Below are positions 53,456-64,000 of a stretch of DNA of 64,000 nt, in pieces. Under the pieces are notes generated by a model. That model worked only from the letters and a program-made list of their open reading frames with translations. It was not told where the DNA came from and did not search any database. A program made the position numbers and the translations under genes. Source of the DNA: Nitrospirota bacterium (GTDB lineage Bacteria > Nitrospirota > UBA9217); NCBI GenBank assembly GCA_963845065.1, contig CAWJQQ010000002.1:405597-469596 (forward strand), in the 5' to 3' direction. Each line of letters opens with the position of its first letter. Positions within the stretch are counted from its first letter, which is position 1.

Positions 53456-54825
53456 TGACAACTGTCACGACATCGTGCACTAACGTTCTTTGACAATCGA
53501 GTAGCCACATTCTGTACTATCATGGACACCACTAAATACAAAGGTGGTGTTCATGAAAAAGAAAGTGCAGCAGGAACGAGCGGCAACTGTGCAACGGTAT
53601 CTCGCCGGAGAAGACCCGGAGAGTATCTGCGCCTCATTGGGTAGATCGCGGCGATGGCTGTACAAGTGGTTGGCGCGGCATATCCCTGACGATTCTGCTT
53701 GGTATGAAGATTTATCACGGCGTCCCTTGGTAAACCCTCACCGCACACCTGCGGAGATCGAAAAGATCGTCGAGATGGTGCGATGGCGTCTGTACAACAA
53801 TGATCTTTTCTGTGGAAGCCAAGCTATTCTCTGGGAAATGGAGGACATGAACATTCAGCCGTTTCCCTCCATTAGTACAGTTGACCGGATCTTGCGCCTC
53901 CGTGAATTGACCTATAGGCGGACCGGACGATATACTCCAAAAGGAAAGAAATATCCGTCGCTCCCGGCGCTCTTGCTTAATCAAACCCATCAGGTTGATC
54001 TGGTCGGCCCTTGCTACCTTACCGGCCCAATTCGTTTCTACAGCCTGCATGCGGTCGATACTGCGACCAACCGATGTGGTATAGAGCCGATGCCCTCCAA
54101 AGCAGCGCAAAACGTTTTGGACGCCGTTCATGCGGTTTGGCTGCGCATGGGCATCCCGGAGAACCTTCAGGTGGACAATGAGATGGCCTTTTTCGGGAGC
54201 CCGATTCATCCCCGCGGCATGGGGCCACTTATTCGTTTCTGCCTGCATTATGGCGTTAAGCTATGGTTTATTCCACCATCCGAACCGTGGTGGAATGGAA
54301 TCGTCGAGAAGTTCAATGACCATTACGAACAGAAATTTTTCGACAAGGTTCCTATGGCCTCATTGACGCAGCTTCGGCAAGAATCACTGGCATTCGAGCA
54401 CTGGCATAACAGCACCTATCGCTACAGCAAACTTAAGGGGAAAACGCCCCTCAAGGCGTTGGCTGCTACAGAGAAGAAATTAATCTTCCCGAGCAAGAGA
54501 GATACCCCAAAGCACCCCTTGGATAAGCCGGAGGAAGGTTCCTATCACCTCGTACGATTCATTCGAAGCGAATGCCGGCTGAATATCTTTGATGAAATAT
54601 TCCCAGCTCCATCGGAGACCCAATACGAATACATTGTGGCTACTGTCGATGTCAAAGAACAAAAGCTCAAGCTCTTCTTGGATACGATCCAGGTAGAAGA
54701 ATATCCTTATTTGCTACGATGCCCATTGAAAATGGTCACGGCATCGGAAGATCAGATGGTTTCAGAGTTTCGATTGAACGATGTAGTGACAGTTTTTCTT
54801 GTGCACGATGTCCTGACAGTCATCA
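53456..54825 (+). mobile_element. Complete IS481-like insertion sequence
   Basis: 25-bp TIRs TGACAACTGTCACGACATCGTGCAC / GTGCACGATGTCCTGACAGTCATCA and a 6-bp TSD CCTAGG (53450-53455, 54826-54831). Confidence 0.9.
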
Positions 54826-54830
54826 CCTAG
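53544..54830 (+). CDS. IS481-like transposase (HTH plus rve DDE core)
   Basis: HQVD, QVDN and NGIVEKFN catalytic motifs with an N-terminal HTH. Confidence 0.88.
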   Translation: MVFMKKKVQQERAATVQRYLAGEDPESICASLGRSRRWLYKWLARHIPDDSAWYEDLSRRPLVNPHRTPAEIEKIVEMVRWRLYNNDLFCGSQAILWEMEDMNIQPFPSISTVDRILRLRELTYRRTGRYTPKGKKYPSLPALLLNQTHQVDLVGPCYLTGPIRFYSLHAVDTATNRCGIEPMPSKAAQNVLDAVHAVWLRMGIPENLQVDNEMAFFGSPIHPRGMGPLIRFCLHYGVKLWFIPPSEPWWNGIVEKFNDHYEQKFFDKVPMASLTQLRQESLAFEHWHNSTYRYSKLKGKTPLKALAATEKKLIFPSKRDTPKHPLDKPEEGSYHLVRFIRSECRLNIFDEIFPAPSETQYEYIVATVDVKEQKLKLFLDTIQVEEYPYLLRCPLKMVTASEDQMVSEFRLNDVVTVFLVHDVLTVIT

Positions 54831-55174: not shown

Positions 55175-56014
55175 CTACCTCTCTATTTTGGCAAGACGGT
55201 CCTTAGCTATTTCCGCTTCATTGGAAAAGGGATGATCCTTGATGACTTTGTTCAAATACTCCTTCGCTTTGATAATATTTTTCTCACTTAGGTACGAGAG
55301 TCCGATCTTAAGCTTTGCACCGGCTACTTTATCGCTTTTGGGATAGTTTTTGATGACCTTGCTAAAAGCCTCAATCGCCTTGCTGAACTCTTTCTTCGAA
55401 TACAAACATTCACCGACCCAGTATTGCGCATTATCAACCATGCTAGTTTCGGGAAACTGCACTATATAATTCTGGAAGCCAGCGAGAGCAAGGTCAAAAT
55501 TACCCTTGTCGTAATCGCTTTTCGCCTGTCGATAAACTTCGGAAGGCTCAATCGTCTTGGGAGATGAGGACTTCTCCCCGGCCATCGCTGTCGTCTGCCC
55601 GGCCGAAACAGTCGCTGTCCCCGCACTCAGCATCTTTATTTTTGTCTCAATCCCATCAACCCGTGCTGAAAGTTCTGCGATTTTGACAGCCCGATCGTCC
55701 AGCTTCTGGGCAAGCTCCGCGATGCGAAAATTGTTTTCTTCAAGTTTGCCCTGAAGTAATTGTAAATCCGTAGTTAGCTGATCGGTTTTGGCGCCGAAAT
55801 CAGCCGTTACCTTCTGCACATCCACCGAACCCTTGACATTAGTATCGAGAAGATCGAGTCGCGTCTGCATCTCCCGAACACGTGCCTGCGTGGTTTTCAC
55901 ATCCTGGCGCAAATCGGTCATCTCGGACTGAGTCCTGACCAGTTCGGCCTGAGGGGCACAGGCGACCAACAGCACGAGAATACCCATGATGGTGATTAGA
56001 GGCTTGGTTGTCAT
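55175..56014 (-). CDS. cpoB: Tol-Pal system protein YbgF/CpoB
   Basis: Lipobox LVAC, coiled coil and TPRs (NAQYWVGE, AKLKIG). Directly downstream of pal. Confidence 0.9.
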   Translation of the reverse strand: MTTKPLITIMGILVLLVACAPQAELVRTQSEMTDLRQDVKTTQARVREMQTRLDLLDTNVKGSVDVQKVTADFGAKTDQLTTDLQLLQGKLEENNFRIAELAQKLDDRAVKIAELSARVDGIETKIKMLSAGTATVSAGQTTAMAGEKSSSPKTIEPSEVYRQAKSDYDKGNFDLALAGFQNYIVQFPETSMVDNAQYWVGECLYSKKEFSKAIEAFSKVIKNYPKSDKVAGAKLKIGLSYLSEKNIIKAKEYLNKVIKDHPFSNEAEIAKDRLAKIER

Positions 56015-56076
56015 AAGGCTCGTAAGAATTCCTTTAAGGCGGTGAACGAAAACCAGCCACGGGGAGAGATGGAGGG

Positions 56077-56110
56077 AAAAAAGGAGAATGCGGGGATGTT
56101 CTCCCGCATT
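56077..56110 (-). terminator. Hairpin or partial terminator between pal and cpoB
   Basis: Minus strand AATGCGGG..CCCGCATT stem, then CTCCTTTTTT. Confidence 0.55.
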
Positions 56111-56143
56111 ACCAGTTTTTCCTAGTTTCATGAACCCCCGCCC

Positions 56144-56701
56144 CTACTTCGTCACGGCCACGAAATCATCTCTACGGTTTTTCTGCCAGCAGTCTTCGGT
56201 ATGTTCCGAACAGACAGGCTTTTCCTTGCCGTAGCTGATGAGCGAGATTCGTTTTGCCGAAATCCCCAGATCGGTAAAATACTTCTTTGCGCTCGTTGCG
56301 CGGCGCTGACCAAGGGCTTGGTTGTATTCCTTGGTTCCTCGTTCGTCGCAATTCCCCTCGATCCGGATCTCTACTTTCGGGTTGGCTTTAAGCCATTCGG
56401 CATTAGCCTTCATGGCGGACCGTGCGTCGTCGCGGATAAAAGACTTGTCGAAATCGAAGTAGATCGGCTGCAAGCTGGCTGATGTGACCGCGGCGCCTTC
56501 GTTAGCCGCTGGCTGGACTTCTTCATTCTTCTGCTCAGCCTTTTGTTCGACCGCCGGCTCTTCCTTGGCAGGCGCGACAGACGGAGCGGTTTCCTTCTGT
56601 GATTCCGGCGCAGTAGCTACTTCCGCCTTTTTGGGACAGCCCCAGAGAACAAAGATACTCAGCAACACAATAACCGGAACATACATTCGTAGTCTGCTCA
56701 T
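56144..56701 (-). CDS. pal: Peptidoglycan-associated lipoprotein
   Basis: Lipobox LWGC, IYFDFD, EGNCDERGT.EYN.ALG.RRA and SYGKEKP. AGGAGG lies before ATG 56701. Confidence 0.95.
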   Translation of the reverse strand: MSRLRMYVPVIVLLSIFVLWGCPKKAEVATAPESQKETAPSVAPAKEEPAVEQKAEQKNEEVQPAANEGAAVTSASLQPIYFDFDKSFIRDDARSAMKANAEWLKANPKVEIRIEGNCDERGTKEYNQALGQRRATSAKKYFTDLGISAKRISLISYGKEKPVCSEHTEDCWQKNRRDDFVAVTK

Positions 56702-57164
56702 AATACATCCTCCTCTATTCTGATGTGTCAAAATGAATTCGACTAGACAAGCTAATGCAAAACGATACGCGAAGAAATACGTTCTGAAGATAGCATACAA
56801 CCCAACCCTTGTCAACGGCAAATGATTTTTTACCCTCTGGGCATCCTGTTGCAATGGGCATGGCATCACTCACAGTCATTGTTCCAAGGAACCTTCCGCA
56901 CAATCTCGCTGAGTTGTGCTCCTATGTGGCTTGAAATCGATGTCGCTTAAACTGTTATCCTATGCGGCACCATATTTGAGTCGTTCGCATGACTTCTCGA
57001 GTCGGTAACTTTTATGTGCGAGTCATGCTTCAGCAACCTTTTCATAGAATCATCGCCAACCATGCATTCGGGACGCTCAGTCCCGTGATTGCGGTGTCGA
57101 ATAGCCGTCCTTGTTTTTTCTCCTCAGTGCTCTAATGGTTTTCCCCTCTTCTGCTAGTCGCGGG

Positions 57165-57674
57165 TCACCAGCCGTTGTGGTGGACCCGCGAACCGTTGAA
57201 GCGGGCCTGTGCCGGCTTGATCTCCGCCGGGAACCCAAGTGGAATGAGAGAAAACGGCACGACGTGTTCCGGCAGACCCAACAGCCGCCGAAGATTTATG
57301 ATGCGGTCTTCCGTCGGATATACACCGCACCAGACCGAGCCAAGCCCTTTTGCATGGGCGGCGAGAAGCATATTCTGCGTCGCCGCCGCGCAGTCTAGCA
57401 CCCAGTGTCCTTTGTATTTTTCCAACGTCGTATCGCCGCATACGAGGATAGCCACATGAGCCTGTTTCAGCATCCCAGCATAAGGATGAAACTTCGGGAT
57501 CTCATCAAGGATCGCTTGGTCCGTCATGACAATGAAGTGCCACGGCCGTTCGCCCCCCGCCGAAGGGGCGCTCATCGCAGCTCTCAAAATTTCATCGATC
57601 ACTCCGCGGGAAACAGGCTTCGGTGTGTAGAGCCGGATACTCCTGCGAGTAAAGATCGCTTCCAGTGTTTCCAT
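57165..57674 (-). CDS. Nitroreductase-family flavoprotein
   Basis: TRRSIR, AMSAPSA, PWHF and QNMLLAAHAKGLGSVW. Confidence 0.92.
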   Translation of the reverse strand: METLEAIFTRRSIRLYTPKPVSRGVIDEILRAAMSAPSAGGERPWHFIVMTDQAILDEIPKFHPYAGMLKQAHVAILVCGDTTLEKYKGHWVLDCAAATQNMLLAAHAKGLGSVWCGVYPTEDRIINLRRLLGLPEHVVPFSLIPLGFPAEIKPAQARFNGSRVHHNGW

Positions 57675-57697
57675 ACTATCCTCCTTACCGCACCTGT

Positions 57698-58666
57698 TTA
57701 ACGCTCTTTCATCTGATAAGCCCGGACCAGGTCCTCGACACCCCGTTCCAAGGTATATTCAGGGTGCCAGCCGAGCAGGCGCCTGACTTTTCCATTGAGA
57801 AACAGAAGATTACAAGTCGCAAACTGAACATAGGTATTCAGGCTAAATTTTACATGAAAGACATCCCCAATAAAGTCTATGATTTTCGACGGTACACTCA
57901 GTGCCACGGTCGGGACAGGCAGGAGCCTGAATTTTTTCCCGAGTGAAATAGCAATGGTATTGAAAAAATCATACCAGCTGTGAGTTAGACCATCGGTAAG
58001 ATTGAATGTCTGGCCTATGGCATCCTTCATTATGCCCGCGAGATAAATGGCTTGGGAAAGATCTTGCACATGAATGAGCGGGGCGACATTATTTCCCTTT
58101 CCGATAGAGGGGAAGCCAAGCGGCCCGAATCGATCTACGGCAGCAACTAAATTTCCGAAGTACCGGGAGCCTGTTCCGAAAACCACTCCAGGCCTGATGA
58201 TGACATACTCTGCCACTGTCTGCGCTTCAAGAATTTCTTAACACTGTCTCTTATAAGCGGTGTAATGCTCCTCAGGAACAAGCTTCGGTTTCGTCTCTTC
58301 CGAGGCCGGAACCGCCGAGGGAATGCCTGCCACAGTCAATGAACTGATGAAGATGAATCGTTTTATGCCGGATTTATCAATGTTGTCTAATATCTTTTCA
58401 ACCAGTCGCACGTTCTTCTTCGCTGCAAGGGGTGATACGTTCCTCAACTCACCGATATGGTAAAATACGTCCATGCCCGCCATCGCATTAATGACCGAGC
58501 TGGCATCCTAGAGGTCCCCGGGAAAGAGAGAGACGTCTTTCCCTGCGAACTGAGCAGGTAGTTTATCCTTTCGTCCGAAGAGGCGGACGGTATGTCCGTT
58601 TTCCGCAAGAAGACCAACAACTTTGCTGCCAATGAACCCCGTACCGCCGGTAACGAGTGCTTTCAT
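57698..58666 (-). pseudogene. NAD-dependent epimerase/dehydratase (extended SDR) with two in-frame stops
   Basis: One frame: MKALVTGGTGFIG..PGDL*(TAG 58508-58510)..ISS..YTAYKRQC*(TAA 58238-58240)..IIRPGVVFG..IHVQD. Confidence 0.88.
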
Positions 58667-58678
58667 ACATGCCAGCTT

Positions 58679-59716
58679 TCAAGCGTCAATAAAGCACTGC
58701 GGATCTTCTGCGAGGAAATCTTCAATGCCGCGCGAACACGCATAGGCAATCGCCCGGCATCCCCTGCACTGCGCCCACCGGTCGCAGTTGCGGCACTTGC
58801 CCTTGTATTTGCTCCGATCCCGAAGAGCAGCGAGGACCGGCGACGTTGACCAGATCTCACGAAGAGAATCTTTCGTCACGTTGCCGAGAGAGAGGGGCAA
58901 TCTCCTGCAGGGCGTAACATTTCCATTAGGAAGGATGGTCAAGCCGGCAACACCTGCCGAACATCCACTGCTCGCAACATCTCCGGCGTCGCCGTTCGTT
59001 TTCTCCCGCATCTGTGACGCGACCGGGTCTCCGGTCACGATTTCTATATCGTCATGCTCAAGCGATAATACTGTTTCATAGAGGCCTCTCACCTGCTCCC
59101 TGGTGAGCATCTGGGAAAGCAAGGATCTGCCTTTCCCGGCAGGCACGAGGCGGGAAAACCCGACTCGTTGCGCTCCTACATGTGAGCAGAAAGCAATAAC
59201 TTTATCCACTGTCGAAGCATTGATGGCTGAAAGCGTAACGTTCAGCGTAACCGGAAGTTTAGCATCGACGAGGTACTCTATTCCCTCTTTTGATGCGCGG
59301 AAACTCCCCTTGCCCCGAATTGCATCATGGACATCCTCTGGACCTTCAATACTAACCTGAACGCCATCGACACCGAGATCACTAAGACTCCGAGCTCGAT
59401 CCCTGCTTACTAGTGTCCCGTTGGTGAGAAGGTACATTTTGAATCCCTTCTGCTTGATTTCTCCAAGAAACTCGAAGAGGTCTTTTTTCAGGAACGGTTC
59501 GCCCCCGGTAATATTCATGCTTGGAGAAAAAGCGATCCCGTAGATGTCTGACCAGTCCGCGATCATGTCCGACACTTCGCCGATCACTCGTTTCATTTCA
59601 GTTAGCGGCAGCTCTTCTTTGCCCTGCTCGCCCTGGTAACAGTGCATGCACCGAAGGTTGCAGTTTTCCGTTAAATGCCACTGGATAAAAAATTCGTAAG
59701 GTTTATTCGTTGCCAT
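58679..59716 (-). CDS. Radical SAM/SPASM-domain protein, putative peptide maturase
   Basis: CNLRCMHC and TGGEP, plus SPASM cysteines CSAG..GNVTPC..CRNC...CRGCRA..DPQC. Confidence 0.92.
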   Translation of the reverse strand: MATNKPYEFFIQWHLTENCNLRCMHCYQGEQGKEELPLTEMKRVIGEVSDMIADWSDIYGIAFSPSMNITGGEPFLKKDLFEFLGEIKQKGFKMYLLTNGTLVSRDRARSLSDLGVDGVQVSIEGPEDVHDAIRGKGSFRASKEGIEYLVDAKLPVTLNVTLSAINASTVDKVIAFCSHVGAQRVGFSRLVPAGKGRSLLSQMLTREQVRGLYETVLSLEHDDIEIVTGDPVASQMREKTNGDAGDVASSGCSAGVAGLTILPNGNVTPCRRLPLSLGNVTKDSLREIWSTSPVLAALRDRSKYKGKCRNCDRWAQCRGCRAIAYACSRGIEDFLAEDPQCFIDA

Positions 59717-59787
59717 AAGAATGATAAAATGATGCTAAGTGAGAATATTTTTTGATAATGCGATTATGATCTAAAAAAGATAAGGTA

Positions 59788-59844
59788 GCAGATATGGCTT
59801 GCAACACTGAACTGTTAGCACCGGTTCGCGCCAGCCATATCTGC
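59788..59844 (-). terminator. Long hairpin between the peptide gene and the radical SAM gene (attenuator or stabiliser)
   Basis: Perfect 12-bp stem GCAGATATGGCT / AGCCATATCTGC, followed on the minus strand by TACCTTATCTTTTTT. Confidence 0.7.
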
Positions 59845-59856
59845 AGCTTCGGTTTC

Positions 59857-59873
59857 GTTGCTGACCAGCAACT
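59857..59873 (-). promoter_or_regulatory. SECIS-like hairpin of the precursor peptide gene
   Basis: AGUUGCU-GGUC-AGCAAC closely resembles the E. coli fdhF SelB-binding hairpin GGUUGCAGGUCUGCACC. Confidence 0.72.
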
Positions 59874-59996
59874 TTAGCTCTTTCACCCCTTTCATTTGTG
59901 GCATACCGTGCCAGGATTTTGCTTATCGAGTAGCTTCTTTGCGGCCCAGTACGCAGCTTCTTTTGCGAGAGTGTCTTTGCTCATAGCCTTTTTCAT
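59874..59996 (-). CDS. Putative selenocysteine-containing RiPP precursor MKKAMSKDTLAKEAAYWAAKKLLDKQNPGTVCHK-U-KG-U-KS
   Basis: AGGAGGTG 8 nt before the ATG, TGA at codons 35 and 38, TAA at codon 41, an adjacent SECIS-like hairpin, and a position upstream of the rSAM/SPASM gene. Below the ORF track size cutoff. Confidence 0.75.
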
Positions 59997-60111
59997 CCTG
60001 ATTTCACCTCCTTTCAGTGGTATGTGGTATATAGAGATTATAATATCATAAAAAAATACCTCTAGTGGCGCATAGCACTTGTATGACTATAAATTAATCA
60101 GAGCAACCCAG

Positions 60112-60858
60112 TTATCTTCCTGCGGCTTCCTTATCGAGAAACCACGTAACTGTTCCGTTCTCGGTAAAGACCTGTCCTGCCGGATATCCCTTGGAATTGC
60201 CGTGGTAAAGGATATTTTGGAGCACGCTCGCTTTGGCTCTTCCTGCAACAAGAAAAAGTACATTAGATGCATTATTGATGACCGAAATCGTGAGCGTAAC
60301 ACGGTTAATTTGAGGATCTTCTAGATATACGGGATTGGTGATCCGAGCAGATTCAAAAACCGCTGATGAACCAGTAAAGAGCGATGCCGTATGACCGTCC
60401 GCGCCTACTCCCAGCATGACAAGGTCAAAGCTCGGGATAGTGACCGTACCAAAGAATGCCTTGATGTCCTGCTCATAGGCACGCGCCGCCTCTTCGGGAT
60501 CTGCTTCTCCATGCACGTTGTGAACATTGCTCTCGGGCATGGGAAGGTTCTTCAATAACGTATCGCGAACCAACCTGTAGTTGCTCGCAGGATTATCGGA
60601 CGGAACGCATCGCTCATCTGCCCAGAACAAGTGAACACGGCGCCAGTCAATGGTGTTTAGATAGGGTGGTGATCCGAGAAGTGTGTACAAGAGGCGGGGG
60701 GTTGTGCCACCGGAAAGGGCGACAGCAAACCTACCTTTTGCGGCAATGGCCGTACACGAAAGAGACAAAAATAATTCCGCTGCGCCATGGCTCAGCGATT
60801 GGAGGTCATCGAATACCGAGATCCGCACATTGCTGCGGCCATTCACAAAGGCCTCCAA
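60112..60858 (-). CDS. pgl: 6-phosphogluconolactonase
   Basis: ALSGGTTP, WADERCV and LGVGADGHTASLF. Confidence 0.95.
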   Translation of the reverse strand: MEAFVNGRSNVRISVFDDLQSLSHGAAELFLSLSCTAIAAKGRFAVALSGGTTPRLLYTLLGSPPYLNTIDWRRVHLFWADERCVPSDNPASNYRLVRDTLLKNLPMPESNVHNVHGEADPEEAARAYEQDIKAFFGTVTIPSFDLVMLGVGADGHTASLFTGSSAVFESARITNPVYLEDPQINRVTLTISVINNASNVLFLVAGRAKASVLQNILYHGNSKGYPAGQVFTENGTVTWFLDKEAAGR

Positions 60859-62420
60859 AAGCGCCCTATTCTTCTTAACAGGCGCAGTGCCTCGTTGGGT
60901 CCGTCCGTTCCCGCGGGGTACAATGCGAGCGGCACGCCCTTTCCCGAATCAACTGCATCAAGTACTGGAGTAAGCGCTGACCACGCAAGCTCTACGCTGT
61001 CTTCGCGCATGAAGAGCATGTGGTCTCCGATCATGCAGTCCAGCAGGACCCATTCGTAGGCGTCGAGTGCCACCCCACGAGGGTAATCGTATTTCATCTC
61101 CACTGGGTTCAAACAGATCTTAGTGCCTGCCTGCTTGGTCTGGAATGTAAGGCTCATGCCCTCTTCAGGTTGTATTTTGAGGATGATAGAGTTAGGTTCA
61201 ATGGGACCGCTGACCGAATCAGGGAACATGGAGTGCGGTACCTCGCGGAATAGAACGGCAATCTCCGTTTTTCGCACTGCGAGCCTCTTGCCTGAACGGA
61301 GATAAAAAGGAACCCCGTGCCAGCGCCAGTTGTCGACAAACACTTGCATGGCTGCAAAGGTCGGCGTTTTCGAAGCGTCTGCGACACCCTGTTCCTGACG
61401 GTAAGCGGCAACTTCCCCGCCGCCGATTGTCCCTTTTGCATATTGGCCGACCACAAGTTGATCAGCCAGCGTATCAAGGGACAGGTGCCTTAGGGATCGC
61501 AAGACTTTTGCCTTTTCATCCTGCACGCGTTCGGCGAAGAACACTGCCGGCGGCTCCATGGCAATAAGGCTCAAGAGTTGAAACATATGGTTCTGGAACA
61601 TATCGCGGATCACGCCCGCTTCTTCATAATAACCGGCTCGGTGCTCGACGCCGATGGTTTCTGTGGCCGTAATCTGCACATGGTCCACATACCGACGGTT
61701 CCAAAGCGGTTCAAAAATAGAGTTCGCGAACCGGAACATCAATATGTTCTGCACCGTCTCTTTAGCGAGGTAATGATCGATGCGGAATATCTGGCTTTCT
61801 TTATAATGGGTATGTACAAGCTGGTTTAATTTTCGTGCCGAGGCTAGATCATGACCGAAAGGCTTCTCGATCACGATATGGCTGCAGCCCTTTTCCTCGC
61901 GCGATAGCCCTGAAGCGCCGAGATTATGGATCACGCTTTCAAAGACCATCGGCGGGATGGCCAGATAAAAAATGCGATTCCCCATTGTCTTGTGCTTAAT
62001 CTCCAGCTTTGGAAGGATGTCGACTAAATCGACAGTGTACGATGCCAGGTTCTCGTAATCGAAGGTAGAGTAGTAGAGATGGTTCACGAACTCGTCCCAA
62101 AGGCTCTCCTCAAAATCGCGTGGAAGCACAGCTTTGACCGCATCCCGCATGCCCCCGCGAAATTGTTCGGTCGTCATCTTGATACGACTGGTGCCGAGAA
62201 TGAAAAACTGCGGCGTGAGCATCTTGTTTTTAAAGAGCTGGTACAGCGACGGCAAAAGCTTCCGACGCGTCAGGTCTCCCGAAGCCCCGAAGATGATCAG
62301 GCCCGCGGGACGTGGAATCTCCACATCGCAGTTCTCGATCCGGTGATATTCCGGCATCAGGCCTGCTTCGGTCGGTGCTAATCCCGTGCTTTGTTGACCG
62401 GTATTATCATCCATGATCAA
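60843..62420 (-). CDS. zwf: Glucose-6-phosphate 1-dehydrogenase
   Basis: GASGDL, EKPFG and RIDHYLAKE. Confidence 0.97.
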   Translation of the reverse strand: MIMDDNTGQQSTGLAPTEAGLMPEYHRIENCDVEIPRPAGLIIFGASGDLTRRKLLPSLYQLFKNKMLTPQFFILGTSRIKMTTEQFRGGMRDAVKAVLPRDFEESLWDEFVNHLYYSTFDYENLASYTVDLVDILPKLEIKHKTMGNRIFYLAIPPMVFESVIHNLGASGLSREEKGCSHIVIEKPFGHDLASARKLNQLVHTHYKESQIFRIDHYLAKETVQNILMFRFANSIFEPLWNRRYVDHVQITATETIGVEHRAGYYEEAGVIRDMFQNHMFQLLSLIAMEPPAVFFAERVQDEKAKVLRSLRHLSLDTLADQLVVGQYAKGTIGGGEVAAYRQEQGVADASKTPTFAAMQVFVDNWRWHGVPFYLRSGKRLAVRKTEIAVLFREVPHSMFPDSVSGPIEPNSIILKIQPEEGMSLTFQTKQAGTKICLNPVEMKYDYPRGVALDAYEWVLLDCMIGDHMLFMREDSVELAWSALTPVLDAVDSGKGVPLALYPAGTDGPNEALRLLRRIGRFWRPL

Positions 62421-63301
62421 GCAATCTTCCTTTTATCGGATTTTATCAATCTTTTCCAATCCTCGGAAAACCGCTCCATTCCCTTGGTCGTCAGTTCATG
62501 CCGGATATCGTAGTCTTCCCACTTTTTATCAAGTTTTATCTCTTTGTACGGAATGGGTTTTAACAATGCGGCGTTATAGTGGTAAGCGTCTCCAGGTAGA
62601 GGCATCCCTTTTTCACCCCAGGCTTTTAATTCTTCATAGGGCACCGTAATAATATCCGTACCAAGTTTGAGGGCGTACAAAAAGTGATCGATGTTCCGCA
62701 CGCTCGCAGTCAGGACTTCCACATGTCCGTCACCCTGAGCGTACATGCAGAGGATATTGGCGATCACGTCCATGCCGTTTTCACCACGATCGTCGAGCCT
62801 CCCGACGAATGGCGAGACGAATACCTGTCCTTTCTTCGCACCCCGCGTTGCCGCATACACGGCCGCAGCCTGTTCCTGTGAGAAGCAGAGCGTCATGTTC
62901 ACGCGCATTCCTGCTTGTACCGCCCACTCTGCCGCTTTAAGCCCTTCCCGGGTCGTCGGAAACTTCACTTGTGCATTTGCGATCCAAGAGAACATGTCTT
63001 TTGCCTGCTTCAGCATCGTGTCGGCCTGAGTCGTTACGTCGGCGTAGACCTCTACCGATACTGATCCACCCGGTAGCAAACTGCATAGTGTCGTTACTAC
63101 CCCCCGATAAAACTCGAGTATTTCTTCGGCACTGAATGTCTCTCCCCGCTCGACCCTTTTCATTGCCTCAGGATTTTTCGAAATTAGCGTCGGATTTGTA
63201 GTTTGACCGTCGAGAAACCCGAGGAATTTTAAGATCTCTTTCGTTTCCTCGGGATCACCGCCGTCCAAAAATATCCTTGTTTTAAGTTTTTGAGGTCTCA
63301 T
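62417..63301 (-). CDS. tal: Transaldolase-family protein
   Basis: FLD, TTNP, VKFP (Schiff-base Lys), NMTLCFS and SPFVGR. Start placed at MRPQ (the ORF track starts at 63355). Confidence 0.88.
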   Translation of the reverse strand: MRPQKLKTRIFLDGGDPEETKEILKFLGFLDGQTTNPTLISKNPEAMKRVERGETFSAEEILEFYRGVVTTLCSLLPGGSVSVEVYADVTTQADTMLKQAKDMFSWIANAQVKFPTTREGLKAAEWAVQAGMRVNMTLCFSQEQAAAVYAATRGAKKGQVFVSPFVGRLDDRGENGMDVIANILCMYAQGDGHVEVLTASVRNIDHFLYALKLGTDIITVPYEELKAWGEKGMPLPGDAYHYNAALLKPIPYKEIKLDKKWEDYDIRHELTTKGMERFSEDWKRLIKSDKRKIA

Positions 63302-63323
63302 ACCATTCCCCCCTTCTACCAAT

Positions 63324-64000
63324 TCAGGCAATTTTTCTTTTTTCCCCTTTCTCAATCTCTACCTCAGATGCTTTCACCTCGTGGCCGCCGAATTGATGCC
63401 TCAGGGCTGACACGATCTGTCCAATATAGCTAGGGTTTGCCTGCGACTGGAGACGAAAATCGAGCGCGCCCTTAATGATGGGCGCAGGGCTTCCAAATTC
63501 CTTCGCGGCATCTATGGTCCACATAGCCTCTCCGCTCTGCGCAACCGCGCCTGATATCCCCTGGAGGTTCTCGCCATATTTTCCATACGCGGCCTTGAGC
63601 CAGCCAACCAACCGCGATTCGATCACGCTCTTGTGGTTGTACAGGTCGGCGACCTTCGCTAGATCGAAATTAAAGCCAGAATGCTTAAGGATTGCAAAAC
63701 CCTCGGCAAGGGCTTGCATCATTCCGTATTCGATTCCGTTATGAACCATTTTAACGAAATGGCCTGCACCGGCTTTCCCGAAATGCGCGTACCCGTTGTC
63801 GACCGAGGCATCACGAAAGATCTGTTCATAAGTGTGAAATACGCTTTCGTCGCCACCGACCATAATGCACGCCCCGGTCCGTGCACCGGCCGGACCGCCA
63901 CTCACGCCGGCATCTAGAAAATTGATGCCCTTATTTTCCAACTCTTGAGCACGTCGTATGGACTCCCTGTAGGGTGAATTGCCGCCATCGATGATCGTAT
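63324..64000 (-). CDS. gnd: 6-phosphogluconate dehydrogenase (decarboxylating, short type), 5' end outside the window
   Basis: IDGGNS, DAGVSGG, GHFVKMVHNGIEYG and LRHQFGGH. Confidence 0.95.
   Translation of the reverse strand, partial: TIIDGGNSPYRESIRRAQELENKGINFLDAGVSGGPAGARTGACIMVGGDESVFHTYEQIFRDASVDNGYAHFGKAGAGHFVKMVHNGIEYGMMQALAEGFAILKHSGFNFDLAKVADLYNHKSVIESRLVGWLKAAYGKYGENLQGISGAVAQSGEAMWTIDAAKEFGSPAPIIKGALDFRLQSQANPSYIGQIVSALRHQFGGHEVKASEVEIEKGEKRKIA

Follow-up and report, generated by a model that had tools for sequence, protein, structure and literature searches.

Do two in-frame TGA codons on the minus strand of a Nitrospirota genome hide a selenocysteine peptide, and is that peptide the partner of the radical S-adenosylmethionine (SAM)/SPASM enzyme encoded just downstream? 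The locus lies in a stretch of 64,000 nucleotides (nt) from a Nitrospirota bacterium (GenBank assembly GCA_963845065.1, contig CAWJQQ010000002.1, forward-strand positions 405,597 to 469,596); we call this whole stretch the window and count positions from its first letter. A sequence-only reading had proposed a hidden peptide of 40 amino acids (aa) with a CxxUxxU core (U, selenocysteine, also written Sec), a selenocysteine insertion sequence (SECIS) hairpin, and a dedicated radical SAM/SPASM partner, and the comparative evidence presented here supports that core. We favor a two-gene module in which a 40-residue peptide carrying two Sec residues is modified in its tail by the enzyme and is likelier to act inside the cell than outside it, and we put the probability of this reading at about 0.7. 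Its parts stand at different levels of confidence: the Sec peptide itself is very probably real, its role as the enzyme's partner or substrate is likely, and any specific chemistry on it is doubtful. In anaerobic bacteria from two or more phyla, the peptide nearly always occurs together with this enzyme, a pattern indicative of a new modified peptide that depends on selenium.

The peptide gene consists of four closely spaced elements:

60005–60012, minus strand: Shine-Dalgarno site AGGAGGTG, 8 nt upstream of the ATG
59874–59996, minus strand: peptide gene, 40 codons plus TAA, residues 1–31 forming the leader
59892–59894, minus strand: first in-frame TGA, codon 35 (U35), predicted to be read as selenocysteine
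59883–59885, minus strand: second in-frame TGA, codon 38 (U38), predicted to be read as selenocysteine

The open reading frame (ORF) begins with the ATG at 59996, and its first 34 sense codons translate as MKKAMSKDTLAKEAAYWAAKKLLDKQNPGTVCHK. Past residue 34 the frame continues with TGA, AAG (K), GGG (G), TGA, AAG (K), AGC (S), and the TAA at 59876–59874, giving a peptide core of C32-H-K-U35-K-G-U38-K-S in which Cys32, U35, and U38 occupy every third codon. Our reading of the minus strand agrees with the earlier description of a strong ribosome-binding site opening an ORF at 59996 that ends in C-HK-TGA-KG-TGA-KS-TAA, and with the even spacing it gave to the Cys and the two TGAs; the further elements it named (hairpins, radical SAM gene, short-chain dehydrogenase/reductase (SDR) gene, and nitroreductase gene) were likewise found where it had placed them. 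Seventeen loci from relatives were inspected upstream of the start codon, and 16 have a GGAGGTG-type site there, the exception (L024) having GAAGGTG. TGA is an ordinary stop in the window genome, where the radical SAM and nitroreductase genes both end in it, and an alternative genetic code with TGA as a sense codon was rejected because these neighboring genes terminate there.

We found that this layout recurs widely. Among 41 near relatives, 19 have an ortholog of the enzyme, and 18 of those 19 loci carry the peptide just upstream with both TGAs. The alignment of these 18 peptides leaves M1, K2, K3, E13, A15, W17, K21, P28, G29, C32, K34, U35, K36, G37, U38, and K39 invariant. In a profile search of 401 genomes sampled from the window's phylum, Nitrospirota, 72 proved to hold the family; there were 76 hits, of which 4, weak, partial, and lacking TGA, were discounted. 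Two TGAs were present in 66 of the 79 match rows and one in 8, the alignment having ended short of the second; when the loci behind those eight rows were read through, the second TGA stood three codons on. Both TGAs were kept in every locus that we read, comprising 18 of 18 in the relatives, 40 of 40 fetched loci, and 60 of 60 loci recovered in a scan of one genome per species. The peptide was also present in 14 of 301 sampled genomes of a second phylum, in a sample centered on a carrier whose record is titled Syntrophorhabdales; this phylum is taken as distinct from that of the window because the two samples share no genome, and the two-phylum claim rests on the 14 of 301 rather than on record titles. 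Because the same layout recurs in more than 100 loci from two phyla, the arrangement is not a product of chance. Translation of homologous loci with UGA readthrough, which had been suggested as a check, recovered the peptide, both TGAs, and the hairpin described below.

The codons past the first TGA vary in the manner of coding sequence. Across loci, the Lys codons after the TGAs are AAG or AAA and the Gly codon is GGG, GGC, or GGT, all synonymous changes, and KG, KS, NS, or SS stands between the Sec codons, with the frame always kept. Ser past the first TGA is retained through AGC, AGT, TCC, or TCG. The residues after U38 are KS, KT, KA, or RS, with K39 replaced by R in one locus, and a stop codon (TAA, TAG, or TGA) follows two codons past U38 in most loci; elsewhere the tail is extended by whole codons, e.g., to KSS or KSE. 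Some genomes hold more than one copy. One of them (G343) has three peptide genes (L106, L107, and L108), one of which stands beside the enzyme gene, and the third copy has a degenerate-looking N-terminus. On another contig there are two distinct peptide–enzyme pairs (L164 and L166).

Two hairpins follow the peptide gene:

59857–59872, minus strand: SECIS-like hairpin GUUGCU-GGUC-AGCAAC, 6-bp stem with GGUC loop, in the 3' untranslated region
59773–59844, minus strand: long hairpin with T-rich tail between the peptide and enzyme genes, terminator- or attenuator-like

The SECIS-like hairpin starts one base past the TAA. Its GGUC loop begins 25 nt after UGA35 and 16 nt after UGA38, as had been claimed, and its stem begins 19 and 10 nt after them, respectively. 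Folded alone it reaches −6.8 kcal/mol (z −3.26); folds of 24 and 127 nt recover it, and a 65-nt fold chose another structure. Pairing holds in 99.0% of 312 cells across 52 sequences, against 15–60% for slid controls, and double changes occur at 4 of the 6 pairs (28 cells), with 0 of 500 shuffles reaching the covariation score, so the covarying hairpins that were to be sought in homologs do exist. The loop keeps GGU across loci. Hairpins after the TGAs of the two selD genes in the same genome have GGU and GGC loops 20 and 17 nt past the UGA, and the hairpin studied here is of the same type and at the same distance. There is an accepted range for the UGA-to-hairpin distance, and E. coli fdhF needs a spacing of roughly 11 nt, to which UGA38 at 10 nt comes close.

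The long hairpin, also foreseen as a 12-bp hairpin following the first one, has arms GCAGATATGGCT and AGCCATATCTGC at 59844–59833 and 59799–59788 and a folding energy of −30.3 kcal/mol (z −4.11). In 37 of 67 loci a perfect inverted repeat, 8 nt or longer, begins 22–36 nt past the stop, mostly with a T-rich tail. The arm GCAGATATGGC and its complement are conserved across families whose proteins are only about 55% identical (loci L074–L113), the long hairpin also follows orphan peptide copies that have no enzyme gene downstream, and in the 127-nt fold the U-rich tail is paired with the core codons, which are rich in purines. The element could be more than a plain terminator, e.g., an attenuator tied to Sec decoding. 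A terminator scan left it unflagged because its loop exceeds the scanner's 8-nt limit; the same promoter and terminator scan gave no sigma-70-like site, and an Rfam scan of 59600–60100 returned only noise (E at least 0.67, scores far below gathering cut-offs). Among sequencing runs matched to the stretch, DNA from soil metagenomes was all that appeared, with no RNA run listed.

The machinery for inserting Sec is present in the window genome (5.2 Mb in 13 contigs, 99.4% complete). We detected adjacent selB (369 bits) and selA (609.5 bits) genes, a tRNA-Sec (63.5 bits), and two selD genes with one in-frame TGA each (G000:C9:522423-523334 and G000:C1:538876-539799), both of them predicted selenoprotein forms. 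All four components, selA, selB, selC, and selD, whose absence would have told against the proposal, are therefore accounted for. Within the 401-genome sample, selA occurs in 66 of the 72 peptide-positive genomes vs 125 of the 329 others. Two of the six carriers without selA have a TGA-containing selD, and the other four are 63–86% complete. The selA gene was also found in all five carriers with other record titles.

Public protein records hold only the first part of the peptide. In a collection of 5.8 billion proteins we found 119 matching clusters, all covering only residues 1–34, and every source naming them says "hypothetical protein". When 1.84 billion representatives were searched exhaustively with a profile, 78 proteins matched: 6 long repetitive proteins, 71 short ones ending at or before profile position 34, and a single protein, P0248, that spans all 40 positions. 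P0248 has W at both Sec sites and at a TGA stop and runs on through the hairpin; it is a translation with TGA read as Trp (code-4 type). Neither the 119 clusters nor the 72 short profile hits contain a homolog with Cys at the TGA sites. The alternation of Cys and TGA at positions 35 and 38 that had been predicted among homologs was thus not borne out, and Sec appears to be obligate at both sites in everything searched, which is unusual. The lack of any Cys homolog among billions of proteins is an argument for selenium itself being the functional group. The peptide matches no NCBIfam or Pfam model, without a single NCBIfam hit at E up to 1.

The gene that follows the long hairpin encodes the proposed maturase:

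58679–59716, minus strand: radical SAM/SPASM enzyme, 345 aa, with Pfam Radical_SAM at residues 15–172 and SPASM at residues 252–312

Both domains score well above their cut-offs (PF04055 Radical_SAM, 83 bits against 29.5; PF13186 SPASM, 50 bits against 21.5). The CX3CX2C motif is C19/C23/C26, the SPASM cysteines are C252, C270, C308, C311, C317, C320, and C341, and all ten cysteines are invariant among 37 orthologs. Since there are only seven invariant SPASM cysteines, auxiliary cluster I would be held by three Cys and would have an open iron site, following the ligand pattern of CrpC as the available text of its description gives it (PMC13692751). The Pfam scan found no N-terminal domain before residue 15 and hence no fused recognition element (RRE) of the kind that serves peptides that are ribosomally synthesized and then modified post-translationally (RiPPs), in line with the initial description of a complete radical SAM/SPASM gene without a PqqD/RRE domain. 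An AlphaFold2 model of the enzyme (mean predicted local distance difference test score, pLDDT, 87.1) retrieved SkfB, SuiB, PqqE, anSME, CteB, and ChlB as top Foldseek hits, mostly peptide- or protein-modifying enzymes. The enzyme passes no NCBIfam cut-off, and its scores are:

AhbD (TIGR04545): 191.8 bits, cut-off 500
NirJ2: 175.6 bits, cut-off 500
ACGX: 163.3 bits, cut-off 400
GeoRSP: 150.4 bits
SbtM (TIGR04082): 148.7 bits, cut-off 350
MftC: 145.8 bits, cut-off 265
PqqE: 104.1 bits, cut-off 381
PapB: 80 bits, cut-off 340

Grouping of the enzyme with AhbC, AhbD, or NirJ had been named as a reason to abandon the proposal, and on this point the outcome is ambiguous: AhbD and NirJ2 score best, yet far below 500 bits. 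A true AhbD (529.6 bits) is encoded on another contig of the window genome (G000:C6:100020-101036). One public source names homologs of the enzyme "AdoMet-dependent heme synthase"; this is probably a mis-annotation, since the true AhbD sits elsewhere in the genome.

Peptide and enzyme are inherited together. The enzyme ortholog occurs in 73 of the 401 genomes; 71 genomes have both genes, 1 has the peptide only, 2 have the enzyme only, and 327 have neither. In the peptide-only genome the contig ends 65 nt past the peptide, and in one of the enzyme-only genomes the enzyme gene is broken by a TAA. The enzyme gene adjoins the peptide gene in 18 of the 19 loci from relatives, 58 of the 60 from species representatives, and 31 of 40 fetched loci by tblastn, or 30 of 41 loci (the fetched ones and the window) by ORF clustering. 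Nine of the fetched loci have no adjacent enzyme gene, and all eight genomes concerned have an ortholog elsewhere (tblastn). A short gene beside the enzyme and co-inherited with it is what pairs a RiPP precursor with its maturase, and by that standard the two genes would form such a pair.

A structural model supports binding of the peptide by the enzyme. We modeled the enzyme with the 34-residue product of translation table 11, three 4Fe-4S clusters, and SAM, and obtained an interface score (ipSAE) of 0.86 vs 0.01 for the best of three controls; 58 of 80 solved complexes attain that ipSAE mark, as do 2 of 110 mismatched pairs, a calibration only approximately applicable to the present case. 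Contacts agree to 89% or more among the three runs, with pLDDT of at least 77 for the partner. In the model, W17 of the leader contacts W55 and Y59 and E13 contacts R286 and W289, and the leader is placed on helix 38–59 and the SPASM helix 285–291 instead of on an RRE. The modeled contacts of C32 are G251-C252-S253 and P231, and the contact list also includes C320 and R271-R272. Among the contacted enzyme residues W55, R286, and W289 are invariant and Y59 is nearly so, S253 being the exception to such invariance or near-invariance.

These findings suggest the following course of events. The strong RBS would drive translation of the peptide, and SelB acting on the single hairpin would recode both UGA35 and UGA38, with termination two codons past U38. 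The long hairpin and its T-rich tail may lower transcription into the enzyme gene, leaving the peptide in excess. The leader helix would dock without an RRE through its KEAAYW motif, and the C/U/U tail would enter the active site near auxiliary cluster I, as the complex model supports, where a tail Cys or Sec could bind the open iron of that cluster, comparable to PapB and Tte1186. The 5'-deoxyadenosyl radical would then abstract a hydrogen and a C-Se or C-S bond would form, as with PapB, Tte1186, and CteB, which we regard as the most likely chemistry; alternatively, the beta-carbon may be oxidized to yield a seleno-heterocycle, as with SbtM. The available text on PapB and Tte1186 describes Se-C links made from Sec peptides and binding of Sec to an auxiliary cluster (PMC10177961), and that on SbtM describes a selenooxazole (PMC9204691). 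The product would stay in the cell, its selenium atoms acting as a redox or metal-binding group. Because no exporter, protease, or immunity gene travels with the module and the core is near-invariant across two phyla, an intracellular cofactor, redox, or metal peptide is likelier than a secreted antibiotic. Taken further, and tentatively, the peptide may be an obligately selenium-dependent cofactor whose Cys-Sec-Sec triad is turned into Se-C crosslinks, a seleno-heterocycle, or a preorganized Se2S metal site with a housekeeping redox or metal role in anaerobic Nitrospirota and Desulfobacterota-type bacteria. If true, this would be the first natural selenoether-type RiPP, and it would explain why no cysteine version exists.

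Among known systems, SbtA/SbtM (precursor TIGR04081, maturase TIGR04082) comes closest. Like the present module, it pairs a radical SAM/SPASM enzyme with a short ribosomal peptide, encoded next to it, whose gene has a SECIS and Sec codons in frame; SbtA is described in the available parts of two sources as having at least two Sec and as the only published Sec-containing RiPP made by a radical SAM enzyme (PMC9204691, PMC13188914). The present enzyme, however, aligns only to positions 199–516 of the SbtM model, the N-terminal 198 positions missing; Sec lies in a GGUG or SGUG motif in SbtA vs C-x-K-U-x-x-U-K-S here; and SbtAM has been reported from Geobacter and Desulfobacteria, whereas the present family is mainly from Nitrospirota. 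The SCIFF peptides, or ranthipeptides (CteA-CteB, Tte1186a-Tte1186, PapA-PapB), likewise form two-gene modules of a small Cys-rich peptide and a radical SAM/SPASM enzyme with no obligatory transporter, and CteB is a structural neighbor of the present enzyme. In these enzymes the substrate chalcogen binds the auxiliary cluster, and they accept Sec and form Se-C bonds in vitro, according to the portion of the report available (PMC10177961). They differ in having an N-terminal RRE, which the present enzyme lacks along with any close match to PapB (80 vs 340 bits), and their natural substrates use Cys, whereas Sec is genetically obligate in the present family. PqqA/PqqE and MftA/MftC resemble the pair in their conserved, single-copy short peptides with near-invariant C-terminal cores, in a radical SAM/SPASM enzyme of similar size without a fused RRE, and in a product that stays in the cell, as we propose here; PqqE is also a top structural and sequence neighbor. 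What sets them apart is a separate RRE protein of the PqqD type, additional tailoring genes (none of these is conserved here), and the absence of selenium.

Proteins with a C-terminal Sec, such as the "UXX-star" proteins, share the position of Sec near the C-terminus, a SECIS past the stop, and public records truncated at the TGA. UxxU, encoded with two UGAs 9 nt apart, has been predicted in other bacterial families (PMC13188914, table 1, in the part available). These are thioredoxin-fold or metal-binding proteins rather than 40-residue peptides linked to a radical SAM enzyme, and most have Cys homologs, unlike the present family. The enzymes AhbD and NirJ2 gave the highest NCBIfam scores and share length and radical SAM/SPASM architecture with ours, which differs in being co-inherited with a peptide and not with heme genes. 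A reading of U-x-x-U-K as a selenium analog of the CXXCK heme-attachment motif, tied to this AhbD likeness, was considered and dropped as unsupported, K39 being R in one locus and no heme-lyase gene lying alongside. The peptide–enzyme pair was previously unannotated and fits no NCBIfam or Pfam family. Literature searches returned no description of it, with coverage incomplete and a prior mention possible, and it does not appear in the available part of a 2026 table that covers 119 families of prokaryotic selenoproteins (PMC13188914). Its two Sec codons only 9 nt apart, served by one hairpin past the stop codon, are unusual, as is a dedicated radical SAM/SPASM enzyme without an RRE. A second Sec-containing RiPP-type system, unrelated to SbtA/SbtM and wider-spread, would open natural Se-C bond chemistry to direct tests on a 40-mer and a 345-aa enzyme, and the family would correct the selenoproteome counts of the phyla that carry it.

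We weighed three other explanations of the locus. The simplest, in which the TGAs are ordinary stops, the product is a 34-residue peptide, and the conservation downstream belongs to a regulatory or terminator RNA, would account for all 119 database clusters ending at residue 34, for TGA being a normal stop in this genome, and for the conservation of the hairpin, which by itself would also fit a regulatory RNA. It does not explain why the 18 nt past the first TGA keep the reading frame, why the second TGA always stands exactly three codons on, why Ser is kept through a change from AGC to TCC or TCG and extensions come in whole codons, why the loop is of the GGU type seen in the genome's own selD hairpins, or why genomes carrying the peptide nearly all have the Sec trait, and we regard it as highly improbable. 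A secreted antimicrobial or signaling peptide containing selenium, i.e., a bacteriocin-like RiPP in the sense of the "selenobacteriocin" label of SbtA, is also quite improbable: the leader–core layout and the strong hairpin between precursor and enzyme genes are reminiscent of a RiPP operon, and the extra orphan copies of some genomes (three peptide genes in G343) and the contig with two pairs would suit it, but conserved genes for a transporter, protease, or immunity function are missing from the 41 loci, the near-invariance of the core over two phyla is unlike the fast evolution of bacteriocin cores, and most genomes have a single copy.

The remaining explanation keeps the Sec peptide and questions its relation to the enzyme. 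The peptide may be a mini-selenoprotein with two Sec that serves as a redox partner, as a carrier of selenium, sulfur, or metal, or as a cluster ligand, and the enzyme a paralog of the AhbD/NirJ type whose substrate is a small molecule, e.g., a tetrapyrrole. The NCBIfam ranking (AhbD 191.8 and NirJ2 175.6 bits) speaks for it, as do the missing RRE and the lack of a conserved protease or exporter nearby; CxxU and UxxU are classical redox or metal-binding motifs, as the accessible part of one source has it (PMC13188914), a near-invariant core suits a functional site better than a variable natural product, and the binding model cannot separate a partner from a substrate. Those NCBIfam scores are, however, far below the cut-offs and barely above the peptide maturases ACGX, GeoRSP, SbtM, and MftC, and a true AhbD is present elsewhere in the genome. 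In the model the leader lies on the enzyme surface and C32 in the active-site region at C252 and C320, as would be expected of a substrate, and the nearest solved folds are peptide-modifying enzymes. On this balance we consider a non-substrate role unlikely and prefer the two-gene module in which the enzyme modifies the peptide's tail.

Several observations weigh against that module. One complete genome (G020) has the enzyme and neither peptide motif nor hairpin in its 4-kb locus. An RRE is missing from the enzyme, and its surroundings hold no conserved stand-alone RRE, protease, or transporter; in the NCBIfam comparison it scores highest with AhbD and NirJ2, which are cofactor enzymes. The last six residues of the peptide, both Sec among them, were not part of the complex model, which may also lean on solved complexes of radical SAM enzymes with peptides, e.g., SuiB-SuiA, CteB, and ChlB. 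The stem is 19 nt away from UGA35, a greater distance than the approximately 11 nt of fdhF, and service of two UGAs by one hairpin is a proposal drawn from the layout. No Cys/Sec pair, the customary though not defining mark of a selenoprotein, was found. Related genomes are not independent samples, and the figures given here are counts without a statistical test. At the level of sequence, the gene, its two conserved TGAs, the covarying hairpin, the Sec machinery, and co-inheritance are established; binding is supported by the structural model, and expression, Sec insertion, and modification are predictions.

Beyond the enzyme gene, two further genes of the window follow on the same strand:

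57698–58666, minus strand: SDR/epimerase pseudogene, with an in-frame TAG at codon 53, a TAA at codon 143, and no frameshift
57165–57674, minus strand: nitroreductase-family gene (Pfam PF00881, 99.1 bits)

Both had been listed with the proposed system. Their presence and identity stand, and their membership in a conserved system does not, judging from 40 loci of other genomes. Intact SDR ORFs of 320–327 aa occur in 5 of 9 relatives' loci checked, and the nitroreductase stands beside the enzyme only in some loci of the window's own family (f1) by tblastn. Only the enzyme recurs near the peptide among the 41 loci, in which we found no conserved transporter, protease, or immunity gene. The next commonest neighbor is a YceI gene after the enzyme (11 of 41 loci), followed by a membrane protein (cluster c4) and a thioredoxin-reductase-like gene in 4–5 loci each. 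The c4 protein, of about 200 aa, is encoded near the module in L079, L084, L090, and L095, directly after the peptide in the last of these; by eye it has an RHPTYL-type motif and resembles ICMT/PEMT methyltransferases, and it had no Pfam hit at E up to 0.01.

In the window, a row of pentose-phosphate genes (gnd fragment, transaldolase, glucose-6-phosphate dehydrogenase, and 6-phosphogluconolactonase) occupies 60112–63998 on the minus strand, immediately upstream of the peptide gene. The genes pgl, zwf, tal, and gnd are neighbors only within the window's family, in most loci of which pgl lies upstream of the peptide. Directly downstream of the nitroreductase, at 55175–56869 on the minus strand, an OmpA-family gene is followed by a gene for a tetratricopeptide-repeat, YfiO-like lipoprotein, and a transposase-like ORF of 428 aa with HTH_23 and rve/rve_3 integrase-core domains lies at 53544–54830 on the plus strand.

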